40,927 nt of DNA from a virus. Taxonomy: Duplodnaviria > Heunggongvirae > Uroviricota > Caudoviricetes. Below the pieces are notes generated by a model. That model had not been told where the DNA came from, did not search any database, and worked only from the letters and a program-made list of their open reading frames with translations. Positions 6,586-32,799 of this stretch are shown here, piece after piece. Location: the IMG/VR virus record IMGVR_UViG_2541047877_000008. One strand, written 5' to 3'. Within the stretch, counting starts at the first letter, position 1. The number at the start of each line of letters is the position of its first letter. The position numbers and the translations under genes were made by a program.

Positions 6586-6602
6586 ATTACCTTTCAGGTG
6601 AT
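6586..6602. promoter_or_regulatory. Operator-like palindrome ATTACC-TTTCA-GGTGAT
   Basis: Read directly from sequence; member of the TACC-N5-GGTA family; lies in the divergent region between the tailspike start (6482) and the ant-paralog gene. Confidence 0.5.
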
Positions 6603-6677
6603 TCGCAAAACGTGCTGGATAGCAAACAAATTATTTGCTACTGTATAAATATACAGTTATTGCATGGAGAAGATAAG

Positions 6678-6935
6678 ATGCAGCAGTATCACTATCCACT
6701 GGAAGACGGATTTACCGAAAGGATTCACACGCCGGGAGGCGTCAGGTCACTGGTGGAGGGATCGCATTTGATGAAATTACTCCGGGATCTCGATAAGGAT
6801 GGATTTAATGTCGATGGCCCACTTGCCGAACTGACTGCACTGATTAACTACGTCACCAGCTCACAGATGTCTATGCGGGATCTGCAAACACATCTCGACT
6901 ATTGTGCCGAACAATTACGAAAACAAACCAGATAA
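6678..6935 (+). CDS. Small protein paralogous to the C-terminal domain of the antirepressor
   Basis: Within track ORF 6612-6935; ATG at 6678 preceded by GGAGAAG; C-terminal about 55 aa align with the C-terminus of the 7249-7935 product (LMxLL..L..DG..V.G..AELT....Y.......RD.QTH..Y). Confidence 0.5.
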   Translation: MQQYHYPLEDGFTERIHTPGGVRSLVEGSHLMKLLRDLDKDGFNVDGPLAELTALINYVTSSQMSMRDLQTHLDYCAEQLRKQTR

Positions 6936-6938
6936 GGT

Positions 6939-6982
6939 TTGCAATTGCCAAGTGGAGTGCTTATATTTACCTTTGCGGTAAA
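6939..6982 (+). promoter_or_regulatory. Sigma70-like promoter (TTGCAA-17-TATATT) overlapped by operator-like palindrome TTTACC-TTTGC-GGTAAA
   Basis: -35 TTGCAA 6939-6944, 17-bp spacer, -10 TATATT 6962-6967; palindrome 6966-6982 overlaps the -10 element and predicted start site. Confidence 0.5.
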
Positions 6983-7016
6983 TTTACATCGCACTCCTCT
7001 TGTGCCATAGTAATCG

Positions 7017-7038
7017 GGCACTGGCAAAATCCAGTGCC
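7017..7038 (+). other. Stable stem-loop in the ant leader (8-bp stem GGCACTGG / CCAGTGCC, loop CAAAAT)
   Basis: Perfect inverted repeat read from sequence. Confidence 0.5.
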
Positions 7039-7075
7039 GGGATTGGCGTCCCGAGTTACTACAGAGGCACATATG

Positions 7076-7095
7076 CCGCATAAGCGGTTTTTTTT
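7076..7095 (+). terminator. Rho-independent terminator / attenuator upstream of the antirepressor gene
   Basis: CCGC-ATAA-GCGG hairpin followed by eight T (7088-7095), about 100 nt downstream of the 6939 promoter and 150 nt upstream of the ant start. Confidence 0.6.
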
Positions 7096-7248
7096 ATGTG
7101 TAAAGCGCACCTATTCTATGGTGGGCTGTGTGGGGGCACCGAAAGGTGCGCCGGGTCCTTTGTAGCCGGTTACGCCAACCCTGCACAGTTCACCACCAAC
7201 CGATTGGCGTCGGTAGTGGTGATTAACCTAACTACAAAGGTGATCACT

Positions 7249-7935
7249 ATGACTGCTAACGTAACCCCATCTGTTTTTCATTTTGAATCAGAAGCAACCA
7301 TTCGAGCCATTGTTATTGATGGAAATCCTTGGTTTGTTGCCAAAGACGTTATTAAAGCTCTTCAACTGACAAACCCCACTATGTCAATAAAATCTCTTGA
7401 TGATGATGAAAGGGCTAAATTTAACTTAGGCCGTCAAGGCGAAACCAATATTATCAACGAGTCAGGCCTCTACACACTGATCCTCCGCTGCCGCGATGCA
7501 GTAACACCAGGCACTATCCCCTACCGCTTTCGCAAATGGGTTACAGGTGAGGTACTTCCTCAGATCCGCCGCACCGGAAGTTACATTAAAAACTCGCTCC
7601 CGCAAGAAGAACGCATAAAGATGGTTGCCGACCAGGTAGCCAACGCCACGGCGTCAGCAGTGATGCAGGCAATGAAGATAGAGAACAAAACCTACAGCGC
7701 CCCACTGAAGCCCGGCTACCGCAGCCTGATTCACTCGCCGTCTGGTGTTCTCGGCCTGACGGAGAACTCACTGCTGATGAATCTGCTGAACCAGTTACAG
7801 GAAGACGGGCACGACGTATCGGGCGCGGCGGCGGAGCTGACCACCATGTTCTGCTACATCGTCGGTGTGAGTAAATGCCTGCGTGATATCCAGACCCACG
7901 CGGAATACATCAACGACAAAGCAGGGTTCTTCTGA
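7249..7935 (+). CDS. Antirepressor-like protein with N-terminal Bro-N domain
   Basis: Track ORF 7096-7935; ATG at 7249 with SD AAGGTGA; N-terminal IRAIVIDGNPWFVAKDVIKAL matches the Bro-N fold common to phage antirepressors; located between ejection genes and tailspike like P22 immI. Confidence 0.7.
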   Translation: MTANVTPSVFHFESEATIRAIVIDGNPWFVAKDVIKALQLTNPTMSIKSLDDDERAKFNLGRQGETNIINESGLYTLILRCRDAVTPGTIPYRFRKWVTGEVLPQIRRTGSYIKNSLPQEERIKMVADQVANATASAVMQAMKIENKTYSAPLKPGYRSLIHSPSGVLGLTENSLLMNLLNQLQEDGHDVSGAAAELTTMFCYIVGVSKCLRDIQTHAEYINDKAGFF

Positions 7936-7977
7936 CAGCGGCGGCACAGGGATGTGCCTTTAAATAATTCTGTACGA

Positions 7978-8021
7978 TTGCAGACTGGGGGTGAATAGCG
8001 TACTATTACCTTAAAGGTAAA
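7978..8021 (+). promoter_or_regulatory. Promoter (TTGCAG-17-TACTAT) overlapped by operator-like palindrome ATTACC-TTAAA-GGTAAA
   Basis: -35 7978-7983, -10 8001-8006, palindrome 8005-8021; about 25 bp upstream of the strong RBS GAGGAGGAG of the 8047 gene. Confidence 0.5.
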
Positions 8022-8046
8022 CCATGTGTTTACATGAGGAGGAGAT

Positions 8047-8256
8047 ATGGGATTTTGGTTCGCTCGTACAAAAACGAGGGATAATGCACCCAGCCCTCAG
8101 GCAAAAAATGCAGAAGTTCCGGCGTCAGCGCAGGTTAACAAGCGTGGTGGTGTGTATATCTCATCACAGCAAATTTCTGAGCTTCCTGAGGTTAAGGAGA
8201 TGCGTCGTCTCGCTGCTGCAATCGTTAAACAGGATCTTGCCACTGTAAGGAAATAG
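8047..8256 (+). CDS. Small hypothetical protein, first gene of the accessory cassette
   Basis: ORF track 69 aa; strong SD GAGGAGGAG 8036-8044; stop overlaps the GTG start of the next gene (TAGTG). Confidence 0.5.
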   Translation: MGFWFARTKTRDNAPSPQAKNAEVPASAQVNKRGGVYISSQQISELPEVKEMRRLAAAIVKQDLATVRK

Positions 8257-9119
8257 TGTTGTTAGCTCTTCTAATTATCCCCATTCTGGTTAGTGGTTAT
8301 ATTATGATAACCGCTAACCAGTATCATTATTTCCGTTTATACCGACATGAAGGCCAGCTTCTTTATATGAAAGTTGCTGCATTAGGTACATATTGCCTTG
8401 TTGCTTCGGTAATAATTGCCGCATTTATAAAATATAAATATCCTGATTTTCACCTAGTTCACGATATGGTGGAAACTTTTAATGTAACGTCAAAACCAGA
8501 AACAGATAGAATTTACATGTGGCTACTTCTTCTGTCAGTCACATCAATTTGCTTCTCTTTGTGTTATGTATCTTTTGTTTGGCTAAAAGATCTTCTTTTA
8601 GGTTGTTTTTATAAACGTGATATTTATGACAAAATATCAGAGGCAATGAAAGCTAGGGTATTGCGAAAAACGTACTCCCAGGGTTCTTTAGATTTGCTAT
8701 TGCTTGATGCAATCGAATCAGATCCTAAGAAACCAATGTTAATTACTTTATCATCAAATAAAGTATACGTTGGAATAATAAATGGTTCTGGTGAGCCAAC
8801 GGAAAATCAAGGGCCACACCAACACATATCTTTTGTTCCTTTAATGTCAGGGTACAGAAACAAAGAAAATTTATCTGTTACATTTACAAACGCTTACCCA
8901 GGTGAAATCCAAATTAAGCGCAGTGCTGCGATAAAAGGGATAAGCAAAAAGAAAGTTCAAGGTCTAGAAATTATGGTATCTATAGACGAAATAAGTCATA
9001 TATCATGGTTTGACTTTGAAGTATATAAGGCAACAAATAACAAAGTAGAAACAAAGGGTCATGTTGTTAATGTGACCAAAAATGGTCGCAACATATACTA
9101 CAGAAGTGGCAGAAAATAA
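8256..9119 (+). CDS. Membrane protein (about 3 N-terminal TM helices plus about 175-aa soluble domain), AT-rich cargo gene; candidate superinfection-exclusion/defence component
   Basis: ORF track 287 aa, GTG start coupled to upstream stop; hydrophobic segments in first about 110 aa; DNA strongly AT-rich relative to neighbours; no motif recognised. Confidence 0.5.
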   Translation: MLLALLIIPILVSGYIMITANQYHYFRLYRHEGQLLYMKVAALGTYCLVASVIIAAFIKYKYPDFHLVHDMVETFNVTSKPETDRIYMWLLLLSVTSICFSLCYVSFVWLKDLLLGCFYKRDIYDKISEAMKARVLRKTYSQGSLDLLLLDAIESDPKKPMLITLSSNKVYVGIINGSGEPTENQGPHQHISFVPLMSGYRNKENLSVTFTNAYPGEIQIKRSAAIKGISKKKVQGLEIMVSIDEISHISWFDFEVYKATNNKVETKGHVVNVTKNGRNIYYRSGRK

Positions 9120-9135
9120 ATTTTACGCAGTTTAG

Positions 9136-9648
9136 GTGGCTTATATGGATAATACTATCTTAGGCGCATTGATAGGTGCAGTTATTGCTATAGTTTCCAC
9201 TTATATAAATGCAGGACAAGGATACAAAAACAGCATAAGATTAGAGCGACAAAAAATATTAAGGGATAAACGCGAGCAATTATTTATAAATTGTATACTT
9301 ACTAAAAAAGTCATAGATTCAAGCACAATTACCATTCTCAATTTCGTAAAAAATGCCAGATACCACTCTGATAGTAAATTTGACGTATCAAGAGCGAATC
9401 CGTTGCAAACGATGGAAATGCTAATAAACATATACCTTCCTGAGTATAAAAAAGACTTACAAGAACTCAATAATGCGTATCAAGAATTTCACAAATACTA
9501 CTCTCAATATACATGTGCACATACCTTCAAAAATATGCCTGATAATGAGAAGTCGAGGTTTATTGAGGAGGCTGATTTTTATGCAAAAAAGATATATGGC
9601 AAACTTAATGATATTAAGGACAAGATATCATTAAACTCAATAGTATAA
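9136..9648 (+). CDS. Membrane-anchored protein (single N-terminal TM, K/E-rich soluble domain), AT-rich cargo gene
   Basis: ORF track 170 aa; N-terminal ILGALIGAVIAIVSTYI hydrophobic helix; AT-rich; 16 nt downstream of previous gene. Confidence 0.5.
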   Translation: MAYMDNTILGALIGAVIAIVSTYINAGQGYKNSIRLERQKILRDKREQLFINCILTKKVIDSSTITILNFVKNARYHSDSKFDVSRANPLQTMEMLINIYLPEYKKDLQELNNAYQEFHKYYSQYTCAHTFKNMPDNEKSRFIEEADFYAKKIYGKLNDIKDKISLNSIV

Positions 9649-9723
9649 CAGCGATACTGCTGCTGACGGCTCCCGCTGCGGTGGGCGTTCTGCGGATTCC
9701 CGCCCAGGCGGCGGTGGCATTCG

Positions 9724-9765: not shown

Positions 9766-10179
9766 TTATAAAGATGACTGATATTTTACAACTCTGTTCA
9801 TGGCATCTTTTTTCACCGAGCTGATATCAGTTCTTATTTTGGCTTCGTCATTACTGCTTATCATGCTATTAATTTTTTGCACTGACATGCCGTTTCTTTC
9901 AGCCATTGCACATACAGCAGCATCGTATGAAGAACTCGCTGCGATGGATATCACCTTGTTACACTCAAACACAGCACCTTCAGCAATATCAGATGCCGAT
10001 GAGGCTGGCTTGGTATAAGTCTTGACGTAGTGATCAATACAACTATCCTTCGCCGTCTTGGCAAGAGAAAAATCCATTTTAACTTTGTCGCAATATGCCT
10101 TATCAACACCGTCATAAACATCATAGGATGTCGAGCAAGCGGATATCAAAAATACCGATAACAGCAATAATTCCTTCAT
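9766..10179 (-). CDS. Lipoprotein (signal peptide plus lipobox ISAC), AT-rich; possible exclusion/cor-like cargo protein
   Basis: ORF track 137 aa; MKELLLLSVFLISAC lipoprotein signal; SD AAGGAA upstream; AT-rich composition. Confidence 0.55.
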   Translation of the reverse strand: MKELLLLSVFLISACSTSYDVYDGVDKAYCDKVKMDFSLAKTAKDSCIDHYVKTYTKPASSASDIAEGAVFECNKVISIAASSSYDAAVCAMAERNGMSVQKINSMISSNDEAKIRTDISSVKKDAMNRVVKYQSSL

Positions 10180-10188: not shown

Positions 10189-12663
10189 TTATTGCGGAGT
10201 GACATCCTGAGGTCGCCACCAGTATGTCTGGTTAAACTCTTTCTTTGAACGTTGCTCCATTTTACGCAAATAGCCTGGTGAAAAATACTCCTGCATCTGG
10301 TTAAAGATCATGTGATCGAGAGCCGCCTTTAAGTACCAGAGATTCGCACCTGGCATCAGACCTTTCCCCAGCTTAACCAGATCACCACCAGTCTGCTCAT
10401 TCTTCCCTTCCACAGCATTTAACGGTATGCCCTGAGCAATCTTCACTACGTCATCAACCAGACCAGCTACCGGGCCAAGCATCGACGCCAACGCGCCGCT
10501 TCCGTACCTGGTGTGGTCAGAGAAAAGAAAATCACCATACAACCCTGCACCACCACCTTTTAAAAATGCATTTATCCAGAATTTAACCATGTTGTCACCG
10601 GTCATTTCTTTTGGATTTCTCCCATTAATAAGATCAGTAATCTGCATGGAAAGAGCACCAAGCATGGTTGTGCTTGCTAAAAACGTTGCTATATATGCTG
10701 CACGCCCACCAGCAGACGGCATCCCCATAGCTCTATGCCAGTGACGCATAACTACCGAGATAGGGAACGATTTAAACAGGAAAACACTTCTCGTTAATTC
10801 ACCTTTCCATGTTCCACGCTGAAGACCAGACCCTACGAACATCTGTTCACGTGCGCCCGGTGTAATAACAGCCATATCAACTTCTTCAGTTACGGCACCG
10901 AGCAGTTTACGCATTGCCTCAAATTTCACGCGTTCAGGCTCACCAAGATGTTTAACTGCTGAATCAGGGATACGCATAATGCTTTCCGGTGTCAGCATCG
11001 TATTATTACCGTTCCCCCAGTCCTCCTGTTGCGCCAGCTTCCATACGCTCCAGTCTGTGTCAGTAATCCCTTTGCTTTTCAGGATACGAAAATCAGAGTC
11101 ATCGAGGCTACGAAGGTCTGGTGTCCGTGACACTACTTCTCCCAGGCTTCCCATCATGGTTACGCCATAGGCGCGCTTGTGCGCATCTGACCATGCTGTA
11201 AGCCCACTGGCACGCATTACCGCCGTTGCCGCCCAACGAGACACAGACGGCCCCATATTATCCATCGCCCAGCGGTTAACGCTGCCAAGTAGAGATTCCA
11301 TCGCCAGGCCAGCGCGGCGCGCCCGCGCAAGTTCTGTACGGTTCGTTGGGTCCATAGCTTCAAGCTGGTTGCGAAATAACTGGTTCATTGGAAGGTTGGT
11401 AACCTTCGCAGACAGATACATGGTTCCAAGATCAGAGAACGATGACAGCAACGCGGATCCGAGTCTGCTGGCAACCAGCCAGTTGCGGATATTGTCAGAC
11501 CATCGCGCGATGTGCGGATTCGCTACAGGCTGTGTTTTTCCGGAAATAAAGTTGTACAAGTTCTCTGTTTTGTTCGCCAGACGCTCGACGCTACCGGTTT
11601 TACTCGGGTTAGCTGTTGCCGTTTCTGCCTTAACCTGATCAAGAAGGGAGCGGAAAACATGATCGGGGTTTGGGCCATATGTTTCCACCAGTGCAATATC
11701 TTTACTGATACCTTCCAGGTGACCGACCATGATTTCCCATAGAGAGCGATCGCCATAAAGTTGCTGATATTGCAGATAGGAATCTGCATCTTTGAAATGT
11801 ATCTGTCGTGATGCATTACCACGGTTAGCACGTGCGCCGGAAATTCGCATTCCGGTATCAGTAAGCTTATTCAGCCCACCAGTAGCGATCGTGTTATAAG
11901 CCTCTCCAAGAAATTCAGACAACTCGGCATCGTTCATCAGTTGTCCATCGGCTCGGATATAATATTTGCGATCCAGCTTACCTATAACATCGCTAACCCA
12001 CTTATCCTTTGATACCGACCCAACCTTTTCCATAGAATGATGTTGAGGGATCCCCCAGTTTTCGAGATAGCCAATGTCCCCACCAGCATCATTAAACCGG
12101 CGGCGCAGCAGCTCTGTAACTTCTCTCCACGCCTTAGCACCTTTTCTTGCTTTAGCATTGCCAGTATTTTGCCCCCGCATTTCATATACCAGGTCACGCA
12201 CGCCAGCTTCATCTTCAAACAGGCCAAAAAAGCGAGGATCAACTGCTTCAAATGCCTCTTGCAATTGACTCAATGCATAATCACGAGTGGCTTTTGTTCT
12301 GGATTCAACAGAGAGGAAATTCGATTTACCGTCTGCATTAAAAGCAATAGTACGGTTAAGAGCGCCAAGTTTCCCATCAGCCCCTTGATAGCTATTGATA
12401 AATTTATCCAATCTCTGACGTGCGGCTATAGTGAGGGCCACACGACGTTTCTTTAATGCCGCTTCTCGCTGTAATTCTTCAGATGCCAATTGTGCTGCAC
12501 GATACAACCGTTCTGATTCGGAAAGTTGTCGCCACGACATCGGGTCATCACGAGCAATGGAGCGCATATTTCGATAAATGCGGTCTTCAATGTTCTGTAT
12601 TTCTCGCGCCGTTAACGTGCGCTGCGCCGCCTGCTGGACCGCTTGTATACATTCCTGTCTCAT
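10189..12663 (-). CDS. Large internal virion / DNA-ejection protein (T7 gp16-position)
   Basis: ORF track 824 aa; position and size within a run of three giant structural ORFs following tail-tube genes; no direct motif assignment. Confidence 0.55.
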   Translation of the reverse strand: MRQECIQAVQQAAQRTLTAREIQNIEDRIYRNMRSIARDDPMSWRQLSESERLYRAAQLASEELQREAALKKRRVALTIAARQRLDKFINSYQGADGKLGALNRTIAFNADGKSNFLSVESRTKATRDYALSQLQEAFEAVDPRFFGLFEDEAGVRDLVYEMRGQNTGNAKARKGAKAWREVTELLRRRFNDAGGDIGYLENWGIPQHHSMEKVGSVSKDKWVSDVIGKLDRKYYIRADGQLMNDAELSEFLGEAYNTIATGGLNKLTDTGMRISGARANRGNASRQIHFKDADSYLQYQQLYGDRSLWEIMVGHLEGISKDIALVETYGPNPDHVFRSLLDQVKAETATANPSKTGSVERLANKTENLYNFISGKTQPVANPHIARWSDNIRNWLVASRLGSALLSSFSDLGTMYLSAKVTNLPMNQLFRNQLEAMDPTNRTELARARRAGLAMESLLGSVNRWAMDNMGPSVSRWAATAVMRASGLTAWSDAHKRAYGVTMMGSLGEVVSRTPDLRSLDDSDFRILKSKGITDTDWSVWKLAQQEDWGNGNNTMLTPESIMRIPDSAVKHLGEPERVKFEAMRKLLGAVTEEVDMAVITPGAREQMFVGSGLQRGTWKGELTRSVFLFKSFPISVVMRHWHRAMGMPSAGGRAAYIATFLASTTMLGALSMQITDLINGRNPKEMTGDNMVKFWINAFLKGGGAGLYGDFLFSDHTRYGSGALASMLGPVAGLVDDVVKIAQGIPLNAVEGKNEQTGGDLVKLGKGLMPGANLWYLKAALDHMIFNQMQEYFSPGYLRKMEQRSKKEFNQTYWWRPQDVTPQ

Positions 12664-12668
12664 TTAAT

Positions 12669-14471
12669 TTAACCTCTCAAGAAACACGCCACAGCAACAT
12701 CAAACAGGCTGGAATCCTGTATTGCCTGCTCACTTTCCCTGTTCGCTTCATCCAGTACTTCACGCGCACTGCGCGATTGTGGATTACCATCATCATCCAG
12801 CACGGTGATTATCATGTCCGGAGATTCAAGCAGCGAGTCTTCAGCTATACGCAGATCAATATCTCCTGCCGGATCTGCCATCATTTTTTGTTCTGTCTGT
12901 TGCAATATCTTACCGGGCTCAAAAGGAGCTACTTCGTCTGGCGTCCTGACCTCTGCTGTTTTATAGAATGAAACAGCCTGAGCATTAAGTTCACTTTCTG
13001 CCTGCTGTCGCCGTGCCAGTTCTGCTCGAGCTTCAAAAAACTGACCTCCAGGCTCGTGCGGCGCCAACGCGTTACGGGAAAATTCCAGGCGTTCTTGTGC
13101 CTGCCGGATTCGTTGATCAATATCGCGAAGTCTGGCCTGTTTATCTGATCGAGCACGAGACAAAGCTTTACCGCTACCGGTTGGCTCTTCTGCAAGAATT
13201 TGTGCACGCTGTTCAGTGAGATTGTCGATAATTCGTTGGCTATTAGCGATTTCAGACTGGTAAACCTGTCTATCGCCACGCGGCAAAAGCTGCGCAGCCT
13301 GTTCTTCAAGCAACCGATTTTCGATAGCGCGCGCCGTTACTCCATCATCTACAGATGACAGAGCCTCATTAACTGCCTGAGACAGCAGATTCTTGCGCCC
13401 AGGAATTTCACTGAAAGATGCAGACTCAACAATGCTGGCAACGTCTACAGGTCTCCCCTGGCTAACATCAGACATAGCTTTTCGCAGAGCCTGAATGTGA
13501 GAATTGCGCGAAAGCACGTTGATCGGCACGCCGGGAGCAATATCAATTTCAGCATGATGAGCGGCATTCGCCGCCAGTGCAGCATCGATATCAACTGGTG
13601 AAAAATTTGGTGCGCTTGTAGACTCGCCGCGAGAGTTAATAAATCTGCCGACACCACCAAACGCCACCCCAAGAACAGCATCAATAGCAATTGCCTGTCG
13701 ATCCAACACATCATACTGGTTAGCCATTTCGCTATAGCCACCATCACGAAGCGTTTTTGCAGTAAGCCCACGCTGTGCCATACCGAACGCAATATTTGTA
13801 CCTGCGGCATAGGCAATATCTGGCGTTGCACGTACTGCTGTTGCTGCGGCGCGTCGCACTGAACTCTCACCCGTCCGCGCAAGCTGAGCCGCCACACCTT
13901 CCGCCAGCGCACCACCAGCACGTAACCCGAGGCTCATAGGGATCAGTGTTCCGGCACCAGCAGTAATGCCCTGCACTAATCCCGCTTCCTGCGCCGTCCT
14001 GAAATCAACACCCTGTGCTGTCAGCCGTTCAAACTCAGAAAAACCCTGTAGCGAAGTTACCGCCGCTGCACCTCCGACAGGACCACCGAGCGTTGTACCG
14101 ACAACAGCCTGCCCGCCCATATCGAACAACCCATAAAGAACCTGCCCGGCGGTTCCGGTTGTCGCGGCATCAGGCGTCAGCCGCTTAACCTGCTGCTCTG
14201 CTAGTTTTCTCTGCTCAGCAATGTATGAAACTGAAGTGTCATTGAGCGAGGTGTTTTCGTTAACAAACTGAGCAATCGGGGATACGATTTTATCCATCCC
14301 TGCCCATAGCAACTGATCTGGCTTTGCCACCAGCCCGGAGTACAAACCAGACAATGCCGCTCCTACAGCGTTGTCGAAAAAACCAACATCGCTGTTAAAG
14401 CCAGCTGGATTTGATGCTGCTTCGTCAAGCTGCTGATTCTGGTTTACTGGATTAAGGCCAAAGTAACTCAT
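12669..14471 (-). CDS. Internal virion protein (Gly/Ala-rich)
   Basis: ORF track 600 aa; glycine-rich low-complexity segments; structural-operon position. Confidence 0.5.
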   Translation of the reverse strand: MSYFGLNPVNQNQQLDEAASNPAGFNSDVGFFDNAVGAALSGLYSGLVAKPDQLLWAGMDKIVSPIAQFVNENTSLNDTSVSYIAEQRKLAEQQVKRLTPDAATTGTAGQVLYGLFDMGGQAVVGTTLGGPVGGAAAVTSLQGFSEFERLTAQGVDFRTAQEAGLVQGITAGAGTLIPMSLGLRAGGALAEGVAAQLARTGESSVRRAAATAVRATPDIAYAAGTNIAFGMAQRGLTAKTLRDGGYSEMANQYDVLDRQAIAIDAVLGVAFGGVGRFINSRGESTSAPNFSPVDIDAALAANAAHHAEIDIAPGVPINVLSRNSHIQALRKAMSDVSQGRPVDVASIVESASFSEIPGRKNLLSQAVNEALSSVDDGVTARAIENRLLEEQAAQLLPRGDRQVYQSEIANSQRIIDNLTEQRAQILAEEPTGSGKALSRARSDKQARLRDIDQRIRQAQERLEFSRNALAPHEPGGQFFEARAELARRQQAESELNAQAVSFYKTAEVRTPDEVAPFEPGKILQQTEQKMMADPAGDIDLRIAEDSLLESPDMIITVLDDDGNPQSRSAREVLDEANRESEQAIQDSSLFDVAVACFLRG

Positions 14472-16981: not shown

Positions 16982-17526
16982 TATAATCCTCCGGGTAATC
17001 TGGTTCCTGCTGCTGCCCCGATTGGCGCAGGGGTGCTTTGAGTAAACGGACTCCACGTCCCACCAAACATCTGGTACGCACCGTATGCCTTCAGAGGCGC
17101 AGTGAGCAATGTTGTTGCTGCTCCCACATTCCCCTGTTTACGGGCTGAACTGGCTTCTGCTTTATAGTTGGCAGCCTGAACCTGATAACCGTAAGCCTCG
17201 CGTTGCGCGTTATTCACCGTCGTCAGCGAATCAAGAGCGCCAAACTGGGCAGTGTCGCCAAATATATCCAGCGCGTTACCGGTAGATAAATCGGCGCCGG
17301 TCGCCCCCATTGTCGCCGCTTGAGTACCAAGCCGCTGTCGGGTCTCTCTGCGCCGTTGCTCAGCTTCAGCGTTACCTCTGTTTATTGCATCATTTGCCTG
17401 AGCTGTGGCTATATCTGCGTTCGCTTCTGCAACCTTCGAGGCATACTTTCCCTGTTGGTACTGGGTGTATGCCTGAATGCCACTCATGGCGAGCATTGCG
17501 CCACCAGCAATAACCGGATCGCACAT
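16981..17526 (-). CDS. Internal virion protein (T7 gp14-position; N-terminal hydrophobic segment)
   Basis: ORF track 181 aa; Ala/Gln-rich; coupled to downstream gene. Confidence 0.45.
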   Translation of the reverse strand: MCDPVIAGGAMLAMSGIQAYTQYQQGKYASKVAEANADIATAQANDAINRGNAEAEQRRRETRQRLGTQAATMGATGADLSTGNALDIFGDTAQFGALDSLTTVNNAQREAYGYQVQAANYKAEASSARKQGNVGAATTLLTAPLKAYGAYQMFGGTWSPFTQSTPAPIGAAAGTRLPGGL

Positions 17527-23267: not shown

Positions 23268-23275
23268 TTCCTCTC

Positions 23276-23977: not shown

Positions 23978-24270
23978 TCCTGTTCACTGGCCTCTTTGGC
24001 CATCTTCAAATACTGTTCAGGGCAATGCGCCATAACGCGCTGAAACAGTTCCAGCGCCAGATTGCGTTGCCCCTCATTAAATGCCATTGCCATAGAGTCC
24101 ATCGGTGAGATAGCGGAAAACACACGGCCTTTCTCCAGCACCGACCAGACAACGCGACGCCCCTGTTCACTGCTCATGACAAAGCGAATGTCATCAATTT
24201 CACGCTGTGCCATGTCACATTGCTTACGGGCGTTTTCTTCTTTCAGTTGATCATCTTCGTAATCTGTCAT
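23974..24270 (-). CDS. Hypothetical head-assembly protein
   Basis: ORF track 98 aa, translationally coupled between portal and scaffold genes. Confidence 0.4.
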   Translation of the reverse strand: MTDYEDDQLKEENARKQCDMAQREIDDIRFVMSSEQGRRVVWSVLEKGRVFSAISPMDSMAMAFNEGQRNLALELFQRVMAHCPEQYLKMAKEASEQE

Positions 24271-25946: not shown

Positions 25947-25960
25947 TTCAATGACTCCGG

Positions 25961-26167
25961 TTACTGACCAAGCAGCGTTTTACCGCTGGTCTTAGCGGTT
26001 GATGTGTCGCCCTGAGAACCGGTAAGCAGCGTAGAACTACGACCAGCAGCAGCGCGACGGCGACGAGTTTCTTCGTCGCGGGCATCAACAACGGCGGCAT
26101 CCTGCTCCTGTGGTGCTGCCTGAACTTCTGGTGTTGCAGGCACTGATGGTGAGCTACCCATGCACAT
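25961..26167 (-). CDS. Small acidic protein upstream of portal
   Basis: ORF track 68 aa; ATG 26165-26167 with SD GGAG 9 nt upstream. Confidence 0.4.
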   Translation of the reverse strand: MCMGSSPSVPATPEVQAAPQEQDAAVVDARDEETRRRRAAAGRSSTLLTGSQGDTSTAKTSGKTLLGQ

Positions 26168-26235
26168 ATCAATGACTCCGTACGCAATTAAATTATTACC
26201 AATTTAACCACATATGATTTATTTATCGTAGATAG

Positions 26236-26273
26236 TTGACATTTAACGCACAAATTATTACCTTTCAGGTAAC
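26236..26273 (+). promoter_or_regulatory. Promoter-like TTGACA box with operator-like palindrome ATTACC-TTTCA-GGTAAC, upstream of the tRNA unit
   Basis: TTGACA 26236-26241; palindrome 26257-26273 17 bp downstream (putative -10 TACCTT inside the half-site). Confidence 0.45.
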
Positions 26274-26594: not shown

Positions 26595-26671
26595 GTGGCA
26601 TTAGCTCAGTTGGACAGAGCAACCGCCTTCTAAGCGGTTGGTCGCAGGTTCGAATCCTGCATGCCGCGCCA
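26595..26671 (+). tRNA. tRNA-Arg (anticodon TCT, reads AGA)
   Basis: Manually folded cloverleaf: acceptor GTGGCAT/ATGCCGC, D-stem GCTC/GAGC, anticodon stem ACCGC/GCGGT with loop CTTCTAA, T-arm GCAGG-TTCGAAT-CCTGC, discriminator G, encoded CCA; 77 nt. Confidence 0.85.
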
Positions 26672-26863: not shown

Positions 26864-26892
26864 ATGACCACAAATTACCTTAAAGGTATAAT
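26864..26892 (+). promoter_or_regulatory. Promoter (ATGACC-17-TATAAT) overlapped by operator-like palindrome ATTACC-TTAAA-GGTATA
   Basis: -35 26864-26869, perfect -10 TATAAT 26887-26892; palindrome 26874-26890 lies between the -35 and -10 elements. Confidence 0.5.
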
Positions 26893-26893
26893 C

Positions 26894-27742
26894 ATGAAAA
26901 ACTTTAAGGTAATTAGTATGTTCGAATCGTTCAAAGAGCTGTTTTTATCTACTGCCAATACTGCCGTGCATCGAGCTAAAAACCCTGTGCTAGGTGCTTT
27001 TGTTATGTCCTGGTGCGCCTTCAACTGGAAATCACTTCTTTATCTATTTTTTAGCAAATCAAATATAATAGATAAAATTTCATACATCTCAGATAACAGC
27101 ACATGGAAAACTGTTATGTTTTATCCATGCTTATCTGTAATTACTATCTGCTGCCTATTACCATGGGTAAACAATATCATTAACGTATGGCAAGCAAAGC
27201 CTCTTGATAATAATGACTCAATCGAAAATCACCGGAAGGCAAGAAAAATACAACGTGAAACACGGCTACAGAGATTGCTGGCTAAAAAAGACATTACTTA
27301 CGAAAAAGTAAAAACAGGCGCTGAAAAAAACATTCAAGACATGAAAGAGGAAATAATTCTTTCAAAAGACAGAATGGGACAACTCACATCTGAATTGAAA
27401 GAGAGGGAGACAGAACTGCGCGCAGCACAAGCTCGTATTTTAGAATTATCTAAGGTTATTCATGAAACAACATCTAAACTAGAAAATCTAGAAAAAGCCC
27501 ACAAAAATTTAAAAAACGAATATGAGTCCTATAAGAAAAACATTCCTTTGGCAACAAATAATACAATTGCTAATGGGTTTGTAGGTCTAAAATCATTACA
27601 AGACCTTAATGAGTCCGTAAAGAAACTTGGCGTTACTGGAATTAACAATCCAGAAATCAGTACATTATTGAATAATCCTCTAGTAAATATAAATGGTGGT
27701 TTAAATTCCACCCATCAAAGAAAATCAAAAACACAAAAGTAA
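26894..27742 (+). CDS. AT-rich membrane-anchored coiled-coil protein (cargo gene; candidate abortive-infection/exclusion protein)
   Basis: Track ORF 26822-27742; start probably ATG 26894 or 26918 (both with AAGG-type SD; 26918 fits the promoter better); two N-terminal hydrophobic helices then long K/E-rich coiled coil; inserted between terminase and portal on the opposite strand. Confidence 0.5.
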   Translation: MKNFKVISMFESFKELFLSTANTAVHRAKNPVLGAFVMSWCAFNWKSLLYLFFSKSNIIDKISYISDNSTWKTVMFYPCLSVITICCLLPWVNNIINVWQAKPLDNNDSIENHRKARKIQRETRLQRLLAKKDITYEKVKTGAEKNIQDMKEEIILSKDRMGQLTSELKERETELRAAQARILELSKVIHETTSKLENLEKAHKNLKNEYESYKKNIPLATNNTIANGFVGLKSLQDLNESVKKLGVTGINNPEISTLLNNPLVNINGGLNSTHQRKSKTQK

Positions 27743-27745: not shown

Positions 27746-29215
27746 TCATTCAAATGGGTCATAGTCTGTTATAGCCCTGCCCTGCTGCTGCCGTGGGTCA
27801 TTAGTTTTCTTGGCTACCGGGAACGCAAACGTCAGCAGTAGCGCATCGCCTTTACCCGGCGAACGCCCAAGCCGCTCCTTGATATCTTCCTTCGGTTCGA
27901 TAACGATTTTACCGTCCACTCGAACTTTGTACTCTGCCGCCGACAGGTCGTCTGCTGTTTCCTGGTCATCCAGCATGCCGCCCAGCCTCAGCCATGTCTT
28001 GCATGAATTGAACATCTCCCCACGCTTGTTGAGCATCTGCGGGTCAGTAGACGCGCCACCGAACGGAACAAGTTGCCATGTACGACCCCATCCGTCACCG
28101 ATTGACTTCAGACCGGTTCCGTAACCGAAGTCGATGAACACCGCGTCAGCCTGATACTGGTCTTCAAAGTCAGCGATACGCTTCGCCATAATCAGATCGT
28201 CGGTAGTCTTGTTGCCAGTCCACAGCACCTTACTGTGTAGCCCCTGCCGCAGGTATATCACCGCGTCATCAACGCCTGAATATGCCGGGTCAACACCGAT
28301 TATCACCGGAGCATGCGCCACCTGCGCAGCGGTTACCACCCGTTTCATTGCCTCATCAGTAAGACCGGTAGGGATAAACTGCAATTCAGATGCATCAGGG
28401 AATATGCCGCGCACACGGATTTTAACGAAGTCGCTGTCTTCCCCGTAGTCATCAACCCATTTCTGCAACTGCTGTTTGTTAGTGCCTTCCACCGTCCGGC
28501 TGTCAATCTGCGCAGTTTTCCAGCGGTGTTTATATTTGCGGAAACATTCGCGGAAACGCCCGGTGTTACGTGTAGGGTTTCCGAATGCCACCCAGATAAT
28601 CTCAGTGTCTTCGTCCGTCAGCGCACCCTCTGCTACCTCCCACACCAGATCGGCAATGTTGGATGCTTCGTCGAATACCACGATGATGCGTTTGCGCTCG
28701 TTGTGTAGTCCGGCGAATGCCTCAGTGTTGTGCTCAGACCAGGGGATTGCGTCAGCTCGCCACCGCTTGTCGTGCCCAGGGTCATTGCTGTACATCGCGG
28801 TAGCGGTACAGGTAAACCAGTCTTTCGTGATAGCAAGGTTCGACCACTTGATAATTTCCGGCCAGGTCTTCGTTCGTAGCTGGTTGTCGGTGTTGGCGGT
28901 CACCACGACCTTACAATCCTCGCAAGTGGACATGCCCCAGTTGATCAGCATTGAGATGAATGCGGATTTACCAATACCGTGACCCGAAGCGCGTGCCAGC
29001 ATAAGCGGCTGATAGCGCGTCTCTGGATTCTGCAGGTGATCACGTATCTCTCGGAACGCATCAGCCTGCCACTGACGTGGACCGGTGGCATGTGCTAATT
29101 CAGTCCCCTCTTCCCCCCACGGGAACGCATAGAGGGCATAGCCAAGCGGATCGTGAGTGAACCCTGCAATATCCTCGATCAACTGCTCTTCAGGAGATAA
29201 CGCTGTATCTGTCAC
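27746..29215 (-). CDS. Terminase large subunit
   Basis: ORF track 489 aa; ATPase/nuclease-type organisation and position adjacent to small-subunit gene; 4-nt overlap with it. Confidence 0.85.
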   Translation of the reverse strand: MTDTALSPEEQLIEDIAGFTHDPLGYALYAFPWGEEGTELAHATGPRQWQADAFREIRDHLQNPETRYQPLMLARASGHGIGKSAFISMLINWGMSTCEDCKVVVTANTDNQLRTKTWPEIIKWSNLAITKDWFTCTATAMYSNDPGHDKRWRADAIPWSEHNTEAFAGLHNERKRIIVVFDEASNIADLVWEVAEGALTDEDTEIIWVAFGNPTRNTGRFRECFRKYKHRWKTAQIDSRTVEGTNKQQLQKWVDDYGEDSDFVKIRVRGIFPDASELQFIPTGLTDEAMKRVVTAAQVAHAPVIIGVDPAYSGVDDAVIYLRQGLHSKVLWTGNKTTDDLIMAKRIADFEDQYQADAVFIDFGYGTGLKSIGDGWGRTWQLVPFGGASTDPQMLNKRGEMFNSCKTWLRLGGMLDDQETADDLSAAEYKVRVDGKIVIEPKEDIKERLGRSPGKGDALLLTFAFPVAKKTNDPRQQQGRAITDYDPFE

Positions 29216-29808
29216 TGATTACCATCCTGACGTTCTTTGAGTCGCTTCCTGGCTGCCGCTATGCGATCAGCAATTGTCACATTCACATTAACATCCAGGC
29301 GTTCTTTGAATGCGTTGACGTCGACGTGCTTACCAATCAGTTCGAGGTTCTTCACCTTGTCAGGCCATTTAATTTTTTTGAGGATTGTCTCTATCGAATC
29401 CTCGTTCATGTTCATGATGGTCGATGACAGATCAAAGCCACTAAGCGTAGTGCGCCAGATTTTCGGCCACTCACGGATTGGTTTAAGGCTCCCATCGTCG
29501 TTGAGGATATCGATCACGTCCATCTGGTCGATCTCCACCAGGCGCATGAGAACGTAATCAGCACTGACGCGCATTCGTTTGTTGCGCTCCTCCATCAACT
29601 CGGCAATCCGTTTTTGAATGCGTTCATCGCGCATCATGACACTGGCTTTAACTGCCGCTGTATTTGGGGAGAATCCTGCGTTAATCGCTGCCTGAGTCTG
29701 GTTTTCAGGCGTTTTGATGTATGACTGGCAATAAGCCTCCTGCATTGCTGTGAGCGGCTTAAATTGCGTTGATTTGCGTTTATAGGTTTTAGGTTCAGCA
29801 GGCATCAT
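29212..29808 (-). CDS. Terminase small subunit
   Basis: Track ORF 29212-29886; start moved to ATG 29806-29808 (MMPAEPKTYKRK...) because a terminator hairpin lies inside the longer reading frame; SD GGTGG upstream. Confidence 0.6.
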   Translation of the reverse strand: MMPAEPKTYKRKSTQFKPLTAMQEAYCQSYIKTPENQTQAAINAGFSPNTAAVKASVMMRDERIQKRIAELMEERNKRMRVSADYVLMRLVEIDQMDVIDILNDDGSLKPIREWPKIWRTTLSGFDLSSTIMNMNEDSIETILKKIKWPDKVKNLELIGKHVDVNAFKERLDVNVNVTIADRIAAARKRLKERQDGNQ

Positions 29809-29850
29809 AACCACCGTGGTAATAGTTACCGTTGTGGTAATAGTACCATG

Positions 29851-29877: not shown

Positions 29878-29926
29878 AGTATTCAAAACCCATCAAATTC
29901 ATCATGCATAATCTACTCGTAACATG

Positions 29927-30268
29927 TCACACTATTAATTTCGTTTCATGCCAGCCTTTAGTCACCCAGCATTGCGAGTCACCATTACACGGGCATGAAT
30001 TAACTGGAACTCTCTCGCCGCACTTACCGCAACGTTTTCTGCTGATCGATTTTATACGCCCGTGCACGCGTGCATCATCCTGGCGGATCAATAACGCTAT
30101 ATACTCACCAAATTCGTAAGGCGCACGCCCGGGGCGACGCGTGGCACAGTTACGCTCCAGCATTTCAATTTCCTGAGCATCAAGCACAATTTCCAGCTTA
30201 CGCACACCAGATGCAGCTTGTCTGGCTCTCTGAGCGGCTTTGCGCTCTGCTGCTGATTTAGCCATCAA
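29927..30268 (-). CDS. Small Cys-rich (zinc-finger-like) protein in the late-regulator position
   Basis: ORF track 113 aa; C-terminal CGKCGERVPVNSCPCNGDSQC cluster; last gene before the terminator and terminase genes. Confidence 0.45.
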   Translation of the reverse strand: MMAKSAAERKAAQRARQAASGVRKLEIVLDAQEIEMLERNCATRRPGRAPYEFGEYIALLIRQDDARVHGRIKSISRKRCGKCGERVPVNSCPCNGDSQCWVTKGWHETKLIV

Positions 30269-30560
30269 TATTTACCTTTATCGCGAACACATTTACCGGT
30301 TTATCGCCGAAGTGCGGATGTGTGATTGTCTTGATTTCATACCCTTCATACGGGGCGTCTATTCTACGACTGGAATCGTCGCGCTTCGGATATCCCTTTG
30401 TGATAATCAGGCGGTCATACTTACGGTTAACGAGGCGCTTATTCCAGTAGTCATTACACAAGCGATACTCTTCCGTTTTCTCTCCGCGAATCATGGCATC
30501 GAAGTATTCACCTTTGACTGCAAGTTGCAGGTTAGCCATTACCGCACCTCCAGTCTCCAT
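30258..30560 (-). CDS. Hypothetical protein, possibly ASCH/PUA-like fold
   Basis: ORF track 100 aa (alternative start at 30539); weak resemblance to small ASCH-type phage proteins. Confidence 0.4.
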   Translation of the reverse strand: METGGAVMANLQLAVKGEYFDAMIRGEKTEEYRLCNDYWNKRLVNRKYDRLIITKGYPKRDDSSRRIDAPYEGYEIKTITHPHFGDKPVNVFAIKVNIDG

Positions 30561-30799
30561 ACCGCCTGACCAATCCGGCTGGCATAGGTATCTTTGGATA
30601 CTGCTCCGTCTTTAGCCAGCTCCATAAGAATTTTGCGCAAATCTGCCGAACGCCATTCTTCATCAGGAAATTCCTTCTCCATTGCCAACCGCAAATTCCA
30701 GGTTGCCATCCTGAATGGATATTCCCCGCCGAGAGCTTTATCTTGCAGGGCTGCCCGGGAACGCATCACCTGCAAAACCTTCTCTTTTACATCCATCAT
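30539..30799 (-). CDS. Hypothetical nin-region protein
   Basis: ORF track 86 aa; translationally coupled within operon. Confidence 0.4.
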   Translation of the reverse strand: MMDVKEKVLQVMRSRAALQDKALGGEYPFRMATWNLRLAMEKEFPDEEWRSADLRKILMELAKDGAVSKDTYASRIGQAVWRLEVR

Positions 30800-31554
30800 T
30801 TCGCCTCCTGCGGCGGCTCTGGTAGCGGCATCCAGTGAGTTACGTCATCCAAGATATTTCCTGATAAATACGTGAAAGCTCTATATTTTTTGTAATCAAT
30901 TGGATTTACAACCCAGTTCCAATATGCTGCCACGATTTCACCTTGACTAAATGCCAGTAACATTTTGGTGTCTTCCGGCATTAGATCACTACAGCTTATC
31001 CAACCATCCGGAGTTACCGGATAGTTGCCATTTACATCGAAGTTTGGCTCTGCGTCCTGAACCAGGAGGATGTAACCATTCTTGGCCGTATCAAGTTCTA
31101 ACGCCTCAGTGACGGTGCCGAAATAGCGATTACCTAAATCAGCATCACAAGTGCTTACATCAATGGAAACTTCCATGCCTTCGATTAATTCTGCCAAGTT
31201 GTAAGCTTGGCTTACAGGTTCGGCTTCCAGTTCTGCTATGCGCTTACTTCCATCCGAGATAACACCTTCGTAATACTCACGCTGCTCGTTGAGTTTTGAT
31301 TTTGTCTCCTCAAGCTCAACTCTCAGCTTCCCTACCGTTAGCGCAATATCCTCGTTCTCCTGGTCGCGGCGTTTGATGTATTGCTGGTTTCTTTCCAGTT
31401 CATCCAGCAGTGCCAGCGCGATATCTGGCGAAAAGTGCTTCATAAAATCGTTAAGCGCATTAATTCGCTGATCGAAGGGCATTACAGGTGCTTCACCAGC
31501 AATTTTTGTTTTTTCAGCGATTTCACGAAGCTTTTGATAATCAATCTTGCTCAC
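30796..31554 (-). CDS. Ead/Ea22-like protein with DUF551-like C-terminal domain
   Basis: ORF track 252 aa; N-terminal coiled coil, C-terminal WISCSDLMPE...THWMPLPEPP pattern typical of DUF551. Confidence 0.45.
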   Translation of the reverse strand: MSKIDYQKLREIAEKTKIAGEAPVMPFDQRINALNDFMKHFSPDIALALLDELERNQQYIKRRDQENEDIALTVGKLRVELEETKSKLNEQREYYEGVISDGSKRIAELEAEPVSQAYNLAELIEGMEVSIDVSTCDADLGNRYFGTVTEALELDTAKNGYILLVQDAEPNFDVNGNYPVTPDGWISCSDLMPEDTKMLLAFSQGEIVAAYWNWVVNPIDYKKYRAFTYLSGNILDDVTHWMPLPEPPQEAK

Positions 31555-32312
31555 TGGTTGCCTCCTTTGCGAAGCTGGGCAGCAAAGTCAACTAACCACT
31601 CAGTCATTTCAACCTTCCCTACCAGGTCTGAACCAGGGTGCATACAGCAATCACTCTGCGCCGCTTTGAAATCCTTATACTCATATTCTTGGGCCACCAG
31701 ATTTTTTGCAGCTTCTATAGCAGCATCCACGCCCTGCGCCCGCACTTCAGCCAGGAAGGCGTCAGTGGACGGAGTTTGCACCGTGATGCTGTCACGCAGG
31801 ATGAAGTACGCGTTAAGCATTCCGGTTTCAGGCATCTCCTCTGCATTAAATGCATCGATTGCAGCATCCATTACAGGGCCAAGTGGTTGAGGGTGTGCGC
31901 TACGGATAGCATCACATTCAGCTATGATAGATTTGATTTTATCTACCAGGTCAGATGGTGACACGTCGTCAGCTGACCGATTAAACCCAAGTGCCTCCCG
32001 AACTGCGCACGACTCCGACATTCTTTGGTCTGCTTGCCCTGCTGACATTGAGTAGCGAGCATTCTCAGCAGCCAGAGCCGAAAACTTCTCGTGTGCCAAC
32101 TTAACAGCCGCATCAGCCTGCTTAATTGACTCAATCGCTCTCTGGTGGTCTTCGGCCAGCGCATTAGCACGCACCAGTTGCACTTCCAGTTGCGTTGCCA
32201 AATCGCTGAGCAGCTTTGCCACATTACGCATATCAACGGCACCACATTCTGCTTTCAGTTCCGAAGCCATCTCATGCCCGGCGGCAACGAACCCTTTGAT
32301 ATTACTTTCCAT
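31551..32312 (-). CDS. Hypothetical protein
   Basis: ORF track 253 aa; Ala-rich, coupled to flanking genes. Confidence 0.4.
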   Translation of the reverse strand: MESNIKGFVAAGHEMASELKAECGAVDMRNVAKLLSDLATQLEVQLVRANALAEDHQRAIESIKQADAAVKLAHEKFSALAAENARYSMSAGQADQRMSESCAVREALGFNRSADDVSPSDLVDKIKSIIAECDAIRSAHPQPLGPVMDAAIDAFNAEEMPETGMLNAYFILRDSITVQTPSTDAFLAEVRAQGVDAAIEAAKNLVAQEYEYKDFKAAQSDCCMHPGSDLVGKVEMTEWLVDFAAQLRKGGNQ

Positions 32313-32373
32313 CTTTACCCTCGCTTATCCACATAACTTATTGATTACATTGATAACTAAAAAGATCGTCGAT

Positions 32374-32718
32374 TCAGAACTCTTCGATGTTCCAGCCACC
32401 ACCTGCTTTCTTTGGTTTAACCGTTACCCCGATGATTCGGAACGGATACTGATCTGCGGCGACTTTGGTTTTCACTCTGGCGTCGTCGGTCCAGAAACCT
32501 TTCACTTCGTGCAGTTCCATCTCGCCGGTGGCGAGCATCACAGCAAAATCGGGCGTATAGAACGTGTTGTCAGCTAACCGCAGCTTGATACCCTCGAATC
32601 GATACCAGGCGATTTCCCCTGCACGTTTACGCTGCTCAAGGTGCTGGCAATACGCAGATTCTGTTTTGTTCATCTGGCCTGTTTTGAGTCGACCAAGAGC
32701 CTGTATCTGTTTTCTCAT
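32374..32718 (-). CDS. DUF1064-like phage protein
   Basis: ORF track 114 aa; pattern YTPDF...HEVKGFWTDDARVK recognised as DUF1064 type; SD GAGG inside the upstream palindrome. Confidence 0.45.
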   Translation of the reverse strand: MRKQIQALGRLKTGQMNKTESAYCQHLEQRKRAGEIAWYRFEGIKLRLADNTFYTPDFAVMLATGEMELHEVKGFWTDDARVKTKVAADQYPFRIIGVTVKPKKAGGGWNIEEF

Positions 32719-32720
32719 GA

Positions 32721-32799
32721 TTTACCTCTAAGGTAATTAAAAACCACATAAGACACGAAATCAATAGAGTTTAGAATATTTTGTTACCTGATAGGTAAT
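32721..32799. promoter_or_regulatory. Two operator-like palindromes (TTTACC-TCTAA-GGTAAT at 32721-32737; GTTACC-TGATA-GGTAAT at 32783-32799)
   Basis: Read from sequence; located between the P-like gene terminator and the DUF1064 gene start. Confidence 0.5.

Follow-up and report, generated by a model that had tools for sequence, protein, structure and literature searches.

Operator-like palindromes dispersed at the heads of transcription units in an ε15-like prophage of Escherichia coli: probable targets of its primary repressor

In phage λ, operators are confined to the left and right operator regions (OL and OR), with none outside the immunity region, and in P1 an operator of the primary repressor, Op51, precedes the c4/ant module. 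Here, we describe the distribution of an operator-like palindrome over a stretch of viral DNA of 40,927 nucleotides (IMG/VR virus record IMGVR_UViG_2541047877_000008; the whole stretch is called "the window" in the following), which matches the Escherichia phages phiV10, phiv142-3, PAS61, TL-2011b and ZX5 at ~96-98% identity and is a nearly complete ε15-like (Uetakevirus) prophage of the phiV10/ε15 type from E. coli. Dispersed repressor sites have been described for the C1 repressor of P1, whose ~15-22 operators, asymmetric 17-mers of the sequence ATTGCTCTAATAAATTT, are spread over the genome before lytic and accessory units (PMC8546580). They have also been described for cluster A mycobacteriophages such as L5 and Bxb1, which contain 20-30 repressor sites throughout their genomes; these so-called stoperators lack symmetry, point in the direction of transcription and are mostly located off promoters (PMC6550527). 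In SPC32H, the repressor Rep binds palindromic sites as a tetramer according to the secondary literature (PMC9638917), with the DNA-binding dimers forming across the two dimers of the tetramer and the antirepressor Ant dismantling the latter (PMC9638917; PMC9986798). Published work on this phage, as far as checked, covers the switch and the Rep-Ant structure and not a genome-wide operator map. Closest to the palindrome described here, the RefSeq record of ε15 (NC_004775.2) contains seven features of the type "protein_bind / repressor / lysogeny" with the sequence ATTACC-N5-GGTAAT. Three of them are OL sites, one each precedes terS, gp3 and the RuvC gene, and one separates gp19 (ant) from the tail fibre gene. 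Dispersed operators have therefore already been recognized in the type phage, at least as predictions. We take these protein_bind features to be predictions, and the ε15 genome paper is said to give the consensus ATTACCWDWWNGGTAAT, which agrees with them. Literature searches for the motif sequence turned up nothing relevant.

The 17-bp palindrome of the window has the same form, ATTACC-N5-GGTAAT. Its core, TACC-N5-GGTA, occurs 11 times in exact form compared with 0.23 occurrences expected, and this number was reached by none of 100 dinucleotide shuffles; with one mismatch allowed, 25 copies were counted versus 7.5 expected. To avoid circularity, a symmetrised 19-bp matrix was trained solely on the five sites of the immunity region. 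Outside positions 35000-35950 it detected nine further sites with at least 16 bits (16-22.7 bits; at 6588, 6968, 8007, 26259, 26876, 29827, 32723, 32785 and 34731). The distribution of site scores is bimodal, the next best score being 11.6 bits, and 1000 dinucleotide shuffles contained on average 0.03 sites of this quality, with a maximum of 2. The extended consensus of all 14 sites reads (A/T)(A/T)TTACCT-N3-(A/G)GGTAA. All 14 site centres are located in non-coding DNA (P~1e-16), which accounts for 7.3% of the prophage, and nine of them head transcription units beyond the immunity region. These data support the original prediction, made from the sequence alone, in which seven such sites outside the immunity region had been listed and regarded as too many for chance: all seven are real at the coordinates given, six of them (6968, 8007, 26259, 26876, 32723 and 32785) being perfect copies of TACC-N5-GGTA and the one at 6588 carrying a single mismatch (GGTG), which is within the tolerance applied. 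The sites at 29827 (before terS) and 34731 (before a p42-like gene) had not been on that list. That the matches originate from chance or base composition, to which only the AT-rich, -10-like flanks of the motif would point, can practically be dismissed, since no shuffle reached the observed numbers (0/100 and 0/1000), all sites are intergenic and five other genomes replicate the finding. A target of a restriction-modification system or methylase was considered as well and rejected, as the motif is overrepresented, confined to intergenic DNA and constant in its position relative to promoters.

For comparison, seven relatives with Rep proteins 42-100% identical to that of the window were scanned. 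Counting TTACC-N5-GGTAA with at most one mismatch, for which 0.5-0.9 matches per genome are expected, yielded 15 matches each in Tyrion (Rep 78% identical) and phiv142-3 (100%), 14 in TL-2011b (98.5%), 13 in Klebsiella phage BUCT711 (45%) and 18 in SPC32H (42%), about 13 of the latter at operator-class positions. The position classes are the same in all five of these genomes: the divergent region between tailspike and ant (A), behind ant and before the Bro-N gene or the next unit (B), behind the Bro-N gene and before a variable slot (C), before gp3 (D), before int (E), before terS with one or two sites 18 bp apart (F), a pair before the DUF1064 or RuvC gene (G), before the p42-like gene (H), OR with two to three sites (I) and OL with a pair and, in some genomes, a third site (J). 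Class K, in the divergent region between the lysis and O-antigen genes, is found in Tyrion, SPC32H and ε15 only. The class E site is located just past the end of the window, as seen in the nearly identical prophage of E. coli YDC107, where it lies ~45 nt upstream of int. Alignments of classes G, D and A in eight genomes and of class F in seven show invariant half-sites with a variable N5 in otherwise diverged intergenic DNA; operator A, for example, stands out as an invariant island. Operator H is also present in phiV10, phiv142-3, Tyrion and BUCT711.

With ε15, the window shares the palindrome, the repressor family (42% identity) and the dispersed positions. Five of the sites annotated there are syntenic with sites of the window, among them those at 19895-19911 (operator A), 2931-2947 (operator D) and 12-27 (operator F). 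The ε15 record differs in having only seven annotated sites, though an exact scan for TACC-N5-GGTA finds 13, ~12 of which are at operator-class positions. Sites B, C and E' are missing in ε15 because it lacks the immI/Bro-N module and the cargo slot. The palindrome, a Rep orthologue together with a gp39-type Cro-like protein, and syntenic sites, which characterize an ε15-like network, are all found in the window. The similarity to SPC32H includes an orthologous Rep, a closely related Ant and the same motif, and a LexA box precedes ant in the window; different from SPC32H, the window additionally contains a P1-type c4/Bro-N module and cargo units with operators of their own.

Simple σ70 scoring around each site revealed a recurrent promoter geometry (Table 1). 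At B, C, G2 and J2, the latter at the leftward early promoter PL, the -10 hexamer is directly followed by TACC, and the operator is centred at approximately +1. G2 and J2 each have a partner site at -62 (G1 and J1). The two G sites are 62 bp apart in all eight genomes; the two J sites keep this distance in seven genomes but are separated by 63 bp in BUCT711. At D, a TTGACA hexamer, of which TTGAC is invariant in eight genomes, precedes TACC by exactly 17 bp, so that the -10 hexamer (TACCTT) of a promoter towards the tRNA gene lies inside the operator. In OR, I1 overlaps the spacer and -35 hexamer of the rightward early promoter PR, I3 overlaps the -35 hexamer of the rep promoter and the weak site I2 is located at about -45 of the latter. 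The claim that several sites overlap -10-like hexamers could thus be confirmed for B, C, G2 and J2, where the hexamer abuts TACC, and additionally for D and E', and the expectation that site positions are kept in relatives was borne out by positions and half-sites retained in eight genomes. Of the site at 26259 it had been said that it precedes the tRNA unit, which is correct insofar as it overlaps the outward promoter; it is at the same time a conserved site ahead of the gp3-like head of the structural operon. Use of the right half-site as a general Shine-Dalgarno sequence was considered as well and is plausible at G2, where GGTAAATCATG is invariant; as a general claim it was abandoned, because the ATG at 8024 behind operator C is probably spurious, given a strong Shine-Dalgarno sequence with an ATG at 8047.

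Most units are preceded by a terminator-like hairpin, and each would therefore need its own control. F and H are located directly between a terminator and the next start codon. The LexA-controlled ant promoter follows ~57 bp downstream of operator A, and in the direction of the tailspike gene a conserved TAGAAT element, which precedes this gene, is reached after ~70 bp. A, F and H could act as roadblocks, as loop anchors or as controls on activator-dependent late promoters.

Table 1. Coordinates of the operators and of the main features of the window (matrix scores in bits).
Feature	Position	Strand	Context
Host flank	1 to ~1870		
Lysis genes	2000-3806	-	
Tailspike gene	4293-6482	-	
Composite motif, copy near operator A	6529-6556	-	
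Operator A, ATTACCTTTCAGGTGAT	6586-6602		between divergent tailspike and small-ant genes; 20.3 bits
Accessory region	6600-9650	+	
LexA box, CTGTATAAATATACAG (perfect)	6641-6656		overlaps putative ant promoter; invariant in 8 genomes
Small antirepressor Ant, 85 aa	6678-6935	+	87% identical to SPC32H Ant
Operator B	6966-6982		centred on +1 of TTGCAA-17-TATATT, promoter of immI-like leader; kept in 5 genomes
P1-type immI leader	7005-7200	+	c4-a1b1 targets/IsrK 7005-7094; terminator 7075-7095; C4 antisense RNA 7114-7200
Bro-N domain protein	7249-7935	+	"antirepressor" of immI-like module; Pfam Bro-N E=5e-20
Operator C	8005-8021		centred on +1 of TTGCAG-17-TACTAT, ahead of variable cargo slot
Cargo cassette behind C	8047-9648	+	small open reading frame, 287-aa protein, 170-aa protein
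Virion genes	10189-26167	-	
Composite motif, copy near operator D	26190-26215	-	
Operator D	26257-26273		~80 bp upstream of gp3-like late unit; overlaps -10 of outward promoter to tRNA
tRNA-Arg(UCU)	26595-26671	+	ARAGORN; Rfam tRNA
Operator E'	26874-26890		overlaps spacer and -10 of ATGACC-17-TATAAT before cargo open reading frame
Cargo open reading frame behind E'	26924-27742	+	transmembrane segment and coiled coil; phrog_4780, function not assigned
terL/terS	27746-29817	-	terS ATG at 29817
Operator F2 (degenerate)	29807-29823		between end-of-early-operon terminator and terS ATG
Operator F1	29825-29841		as F2
Early-right genes	29927-34712	-	
Operator G2	32721-32737	-	at +1 of TTGATT-17-TTTAAT of DUF1064 unit
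Related motif TTATGTGGTT	32742-32751	-	in G-promoter spacer
Operator G1	32783-32799	-	at -62 of the same promoter
Operator H	34729-34745		right after cro terminator, before p42-like gene; without σ70-like promoter
Cro-like gene	34800-35030	-	
Operator I1 (OR-like cluster)	35066-35082		between cro and rep
Operator I2 (weak)	35097-35113		between cro and rep
Operator I3	35114-35130		between cro and rep
Repressor gene rep	35185-35769	+	
Operator J1 (OL-like pair)	35826-35842	+	at -62 of PL, TTGACA-17-AATTAT
Operator J2	35888-35904	+	at +1 of PL
Early-left genes	from rep through to int		

Two further elements were noticed next to these operators. A composite motif, CATATGTGGTT-N5-GGTAAT-A, is located 40-50 nt downstream of operator A (towards the tailspike gene) and of operator D (towards gp3). 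Its D copy is invariant in eight genomes and its A copy is conserved save for two positions, the count as such being not significant (3 versus 1.7 expected). It may be a late-promoter or activator element, the right part of which equals the operator half-site. Between the cro start codon and I1, a 9-bp inverted repeat, ATATTTATT-N6-AATAAATAT (35040-35066), holds a weak LexA-like box, CTGATATTTATTTCAG; it could be the site of another factor or a plain AT-rich UP-like element.

The palindrome might alternatively be an activator element for another regulator, such as the phrog_536 "transcriptional regulator" before terS or the PerC-like or AlpA-like proteins. Several such candidates are encoded, and the sites head nearly all units, including the late terS, gp3 and tailspike units, which do not possess a good -35 hexamer. 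However, the placement of the operators, with their centre on +1 and their edge at the -10 hexamer, is that of repressor and not of activator sites, the densest clusters flank rep and cro, and the separate, conserved CATATGTGGTT-N5-GGTAAT element is the better candidate for late promoters or activation at the tailspike gene and gp3, which renders this possibility very improbable.

Rep itself, a protein of 194 aa with two helix-turn-helix-type domains (Pfam HTH_3), has the same sequence as phiV10 p40. Its identity to ε15 gp38 (E=2e-54) and to SPC32H Rep (PDB 5D50/5D4Z; E=4e-42 to 5D50) is 42% in both cases. The Cro-like protein is 80% identical to ε15 gp39. Two to three copies of the palindrome are located on either side of rep in an OR/OL-like layout. 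Taken together, we consider it likely that the palindromes are operators of the primary repressor Rep, which would police nearly every unit of the prophage, and that the Cro-like protein probably uses the same sites during lytic growth. The regulon put forward in the original prediction, with operators of the immunity type ahead of antirepressor, cargo and tRNA units, is strongly supported by the conserved sites, their consistent promoter geometry and their exclusively intergenic location. Rep, rather than the Cro-like protein, as the binder, repression by binding, and clamping or looping by Rep tetramers are what we infer from site statistics, geometry, conservation and homology. Related to this, overexpression of the repressor of phage ZX5 reduced the endolysin and holin transcripts by more than 99.9% (PMC9782041). 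The ZX5 repressor is identical to Rep of the window, and this result is consistent with the repression model, but indirect.

A different assignment would give the dispersed sites wholly or for the most part to the Cro-like protein, which would lower early and accessory transcription late in infection, with Rep acting at OR and OL alone. λ Cro and CI are known to share operators, and across the genomes with the invariant half-site the Cro-like protein is better conserved (59-84%) than Rep (43-78%), its helix-turn-helix-like segment (AGTTSHYIQ.HLT) being invariant. Nevertheless, we regard this assignment as unlikely. The dispersed sites are indistinguishable from those of OR and OL, some of them even outscoring the latter with the matrix trained on these, and the recognition helix of Rep (NLVNRW) is, like the half-site, invariant across Rep subtypes. 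Furthermore, the authors of the ε15 record assigned the sites to the repressor, and a lysogen needs the int, ant, late and cargo units to be silent while Cro is absent. A covariation test of Rep versus its sites was also attempted and is uninformative, because all four Rep subtypes (100, ~77, ~45 and ~42%) use the same half-site and the reading heads of both Rep and Cro are invariant.

Rep as the policing repressor also has to be weighed against three observations that speak to its disadvantage. First, the invariance of the helix-turn-helix segment of the Cro-like protein equals that of Rep, so that, at the sequence level, conservation does not tell the two apart. Second, σ70 scoring found no recognisable promoter overlapped by A, F or H, or by D with respect to gp3. 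Third, cargo such as YafO toxin modules would be repressed in the lysogen, contrary to the usual expression of prophage cargo during lysogeny.

The prophage is split into short, terminator-bounded units, nearly each of which begins with an operator of its own: PL, PR/Prep (the latter being the rep promoter), p42, the DUF1064/replication-accessory unit, the late terS unit, gp3/tRNA, the cargo open reading frame behind E', the immI-type c4-RNA/Bro-N module, the variable cargo slot, ant/tailspike and, just outside the window, int. With Rep as the binder, an operator placed right after the -10 hexamer and over the start site would occlude RNA polymerase. At PL and the DUF1064 promoter, the second operator 62 bp upstream (approximately six helical turns) would strengthen this steric repression, and since the Rep tetramer has two DNA-binding units, it could clamp both sites of such a pair. 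In the lysogen, Rep would hold the lytic, accessory and cargo units silent, each of them independently. Upon SOS induction, cleavage of LexA would release the small Ant and Rep would be inactivated, leading to a joint derepression of all units.

The window contains two antirepressor modules, one with the small Ant behind the LexA box and one with the Bro-N protein behind operator B and a C4 RNA. In SPC32H, LexA reportedly controls ant, a finding that Kim and Ryu are said to have presented in 2013. Before, the gene of the small Ant had been called an ant paralog, which has to be corrected, since its 87% identity makes it an orthologue of SPC32H ant, which the record of that phage lists as the anti-repressor gene. 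Despite this high identity, Rep, the presumed target of Ant, shares just 42% identity with its SPC32H counterpart, and ~35-40% in the C-terminal domain, which is the reported Ant-binding domain. Such a mismatch is odd for a specific antagonist and suggests, at the level of the sequences, a broad specificity of Ant or a small conserved contact patch. The region behind operator B, formerly labelled an ant leader, turned out to be a P1-type immI module (c4 targets/IsrK, terminator and C4 antisense RNA) before the Bro-N protein, with Rfam scores of 74 bits for IsrK, 79.5 bits for C4 and 44 bits for c4-a1b1, the last being just below the gathering threshold. As the C4 RNA occupies 7114-7200, the long open reading frame at 7096-7935 has a wrong start, and the Bro-N coding sequence probably begins at 7249.

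Compared with λ, the layout around rep is similar in that the repressor gene lies between clusters of two to three palindromic operators, which overlap divergent promoters, and cooperativity between separated sites is likely here as well; in contrast to λ, roughly two thirds of the sites are found elsewhere than in the immunity region. With P1, the window shares dispersed primary-repressor operators and a C4/ant module behind an operator (the role of the RNA being assigned by Rfam match). Differently from P1, a plasmid prophage, its sites are palindromic and partly arranged in 62-bp pairs, and its repressor is of the Cro/CI helix-turn-helix type and not a homologue of C1 (Pfam). Judged from motif and repressor family, the network is similar in its working to the P1 C1 regulon without being a member of that family. 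Stoperators differ from the sites of the window in that the latter have a symmetric sequence, never fall within genes and in most cases overlap promoters. F and H, which follow terminators and show no evident promoter, could nonetheless act on elongating polymerase in a stoperator-like manner. The dispersed distribution had initially been called unusual, which is true relative to λ; it is not unusual within the phage group itself, as seen from the seven dispersed repressor sites in the ε15 record, and it is also classical in P1 and L5-type phages. The general picture remains unchanged, since P1 and L5 are established cases of dispersed operators and the ε15 record already lists such sites. What the prophage provides is a natural example of a repressor that appears to police each unit separately, as opposed to the λ cascade starting from two promoters, and an operator map ready for work on phiV10-type prophages.

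The units behind operators C and E' are occupied by cargo genes. The earlier designation of the former as a membrane-protein cassette is reasonable, given that hydropathy analysis finds three N-terminal transmembrane segments in the 287-aa protein and one in the 170-aa protein. The cargo proteins belong to PHROGs families without assigned function, and neither Pfam (no function) nor PADLOC (no match) added to this. When positions 7936-9660 were compared with the phage collection, only the first 85 bp gave matches, and no homologue of the cassette was present in this collection. The cargo open reading frame behind E' probably starts at 26924, an ATG shared with BUCT711, and the TACC/GGTA core, the -35 and the -10 hexamer of E' are kept before the homologous cargo gene of that phage (~68% nucleotide identity). 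The 17-mer of E', ATTACCTTAAAGGTATA, is identical to that of the int promoter region; a duplication of this region as the origin of E' was rejected, as the flanks are unrelated and E' is kept together with its own cargo gene.

Homology among the prophages ends at operator C. The conserved part, referred to as socket, consists of the hairpin GGCACAGGGATGTGCC, the promoter TTGCAG-17-TACTAT and operator C, and 299 of 5426 complete E. coli genomes contain this module. Alignment of seven prophages shows the socket to be nearly identical through the right half of the operator, after which similarity collapses. At least five unrelated cargos follow it, among them YafO toxin modules (two kinds), a DUF4760 protein, two different hypothetical proteins, the membrane cassette of the window and the small open reading frames of phiv142-3. 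Similarly, in class G either a DUF1064 or a RuvC gene is located behind the same promoter-operator pair. The operators thus coincide with mosaic junctions and seem to place exchangeable cargo under the switch. It could be argued that outside the immunity region the motif is non-regulatory and merely serves as a homology patch at junctions, promoting recombinational exchange of cargo. Homology indeed stops exactly at C with at least five different cargos beyond it, the class G module carries differing genes, and RecE/RecT-like proteins are encoded by the phage. Junction homology would, however, be expected to keep whole blocks rather than two 5-bp half-sites around a variable N5, and a phasing of exactly 62 bp, together with a constant location with respect to the -10 hexamer, argues for the binding of a protein. 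We therefore give this explanation very little credit; a role in recombination is more likely a by-product of operator conservation.

With the sites as Rep operators, a further-reaching reading may be put forward tentatively, and we would rather not expect it to hold in full: conserved sockets ending at a Rep operator might be portable and wire newly recombined cargo into the lysis-lysogeny switch, making this cargo (YafO toxin modules, DUF4760 proteins, membrane-protein cassettes and a tRNA) specific for induction instead of being expressed in the lysogen, and Rep tetramers might additionally bridge single dispersed operators and loop the silent prophage. Since the half-site is invariant across Reps that are only 42% identical, this reading would also imply genus-wide cross-talk of immunity, with specificity residing elsewhere (N5, flanks or Ant). 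The socket in front of the cargo slot and the mosaic junctions seem to add to what has been annotated before, and together with the invariant 62-bp phasing they are the part most worth following. Rep control predicts that lysogens do not express the variable cargo behind B, C and E' and that induction turns it on, which affects screens for defence or conversion phenotypes, and the operator-bearing socket of 85 bp can serve as a simple marker for cargo slots in this prophage family.

The remaining observations concern the prophage as a whole, which is oriented in reverse to the phiV10 record. The window ends with the integrase gene, and guaA is the next gene in the prophage of E. coli YDC107; by this comparison, the prophage is integrated at guaA. 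The integrase region is present in 550 of 5426 complete E. coli genomes (~10%). At the other end, the Hfq-binding small RNA STnc490 (1687-1810, minus strand; Rfam 146 bits) is located just left of position ~1873, where similarity to related phages starts, and belongs either to the host flank or to the left end of the prophage. Between the cargo slot and the virion genes, an open reading frame of 137 aa (9766-10179, minus strand; phrog_8691, function not assigned) with a lipoprotein-like signal sequence, LLLLSVFLISAC, does not possess an operator of its own and is therefore a candidate for a moron expressed in the lysogen. Finally, the DnaT-like replication gene (33618-34433, minus strand) contains three adjacent arrays of tandem repeats (33997-34133) with periods of 12 (2.4 copies), 24 (2.6 copies, 100% match) and 18 (3.1 copies). 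These arrays resemble iterons and may mark a replication origin within the initiator gene, like λ O.

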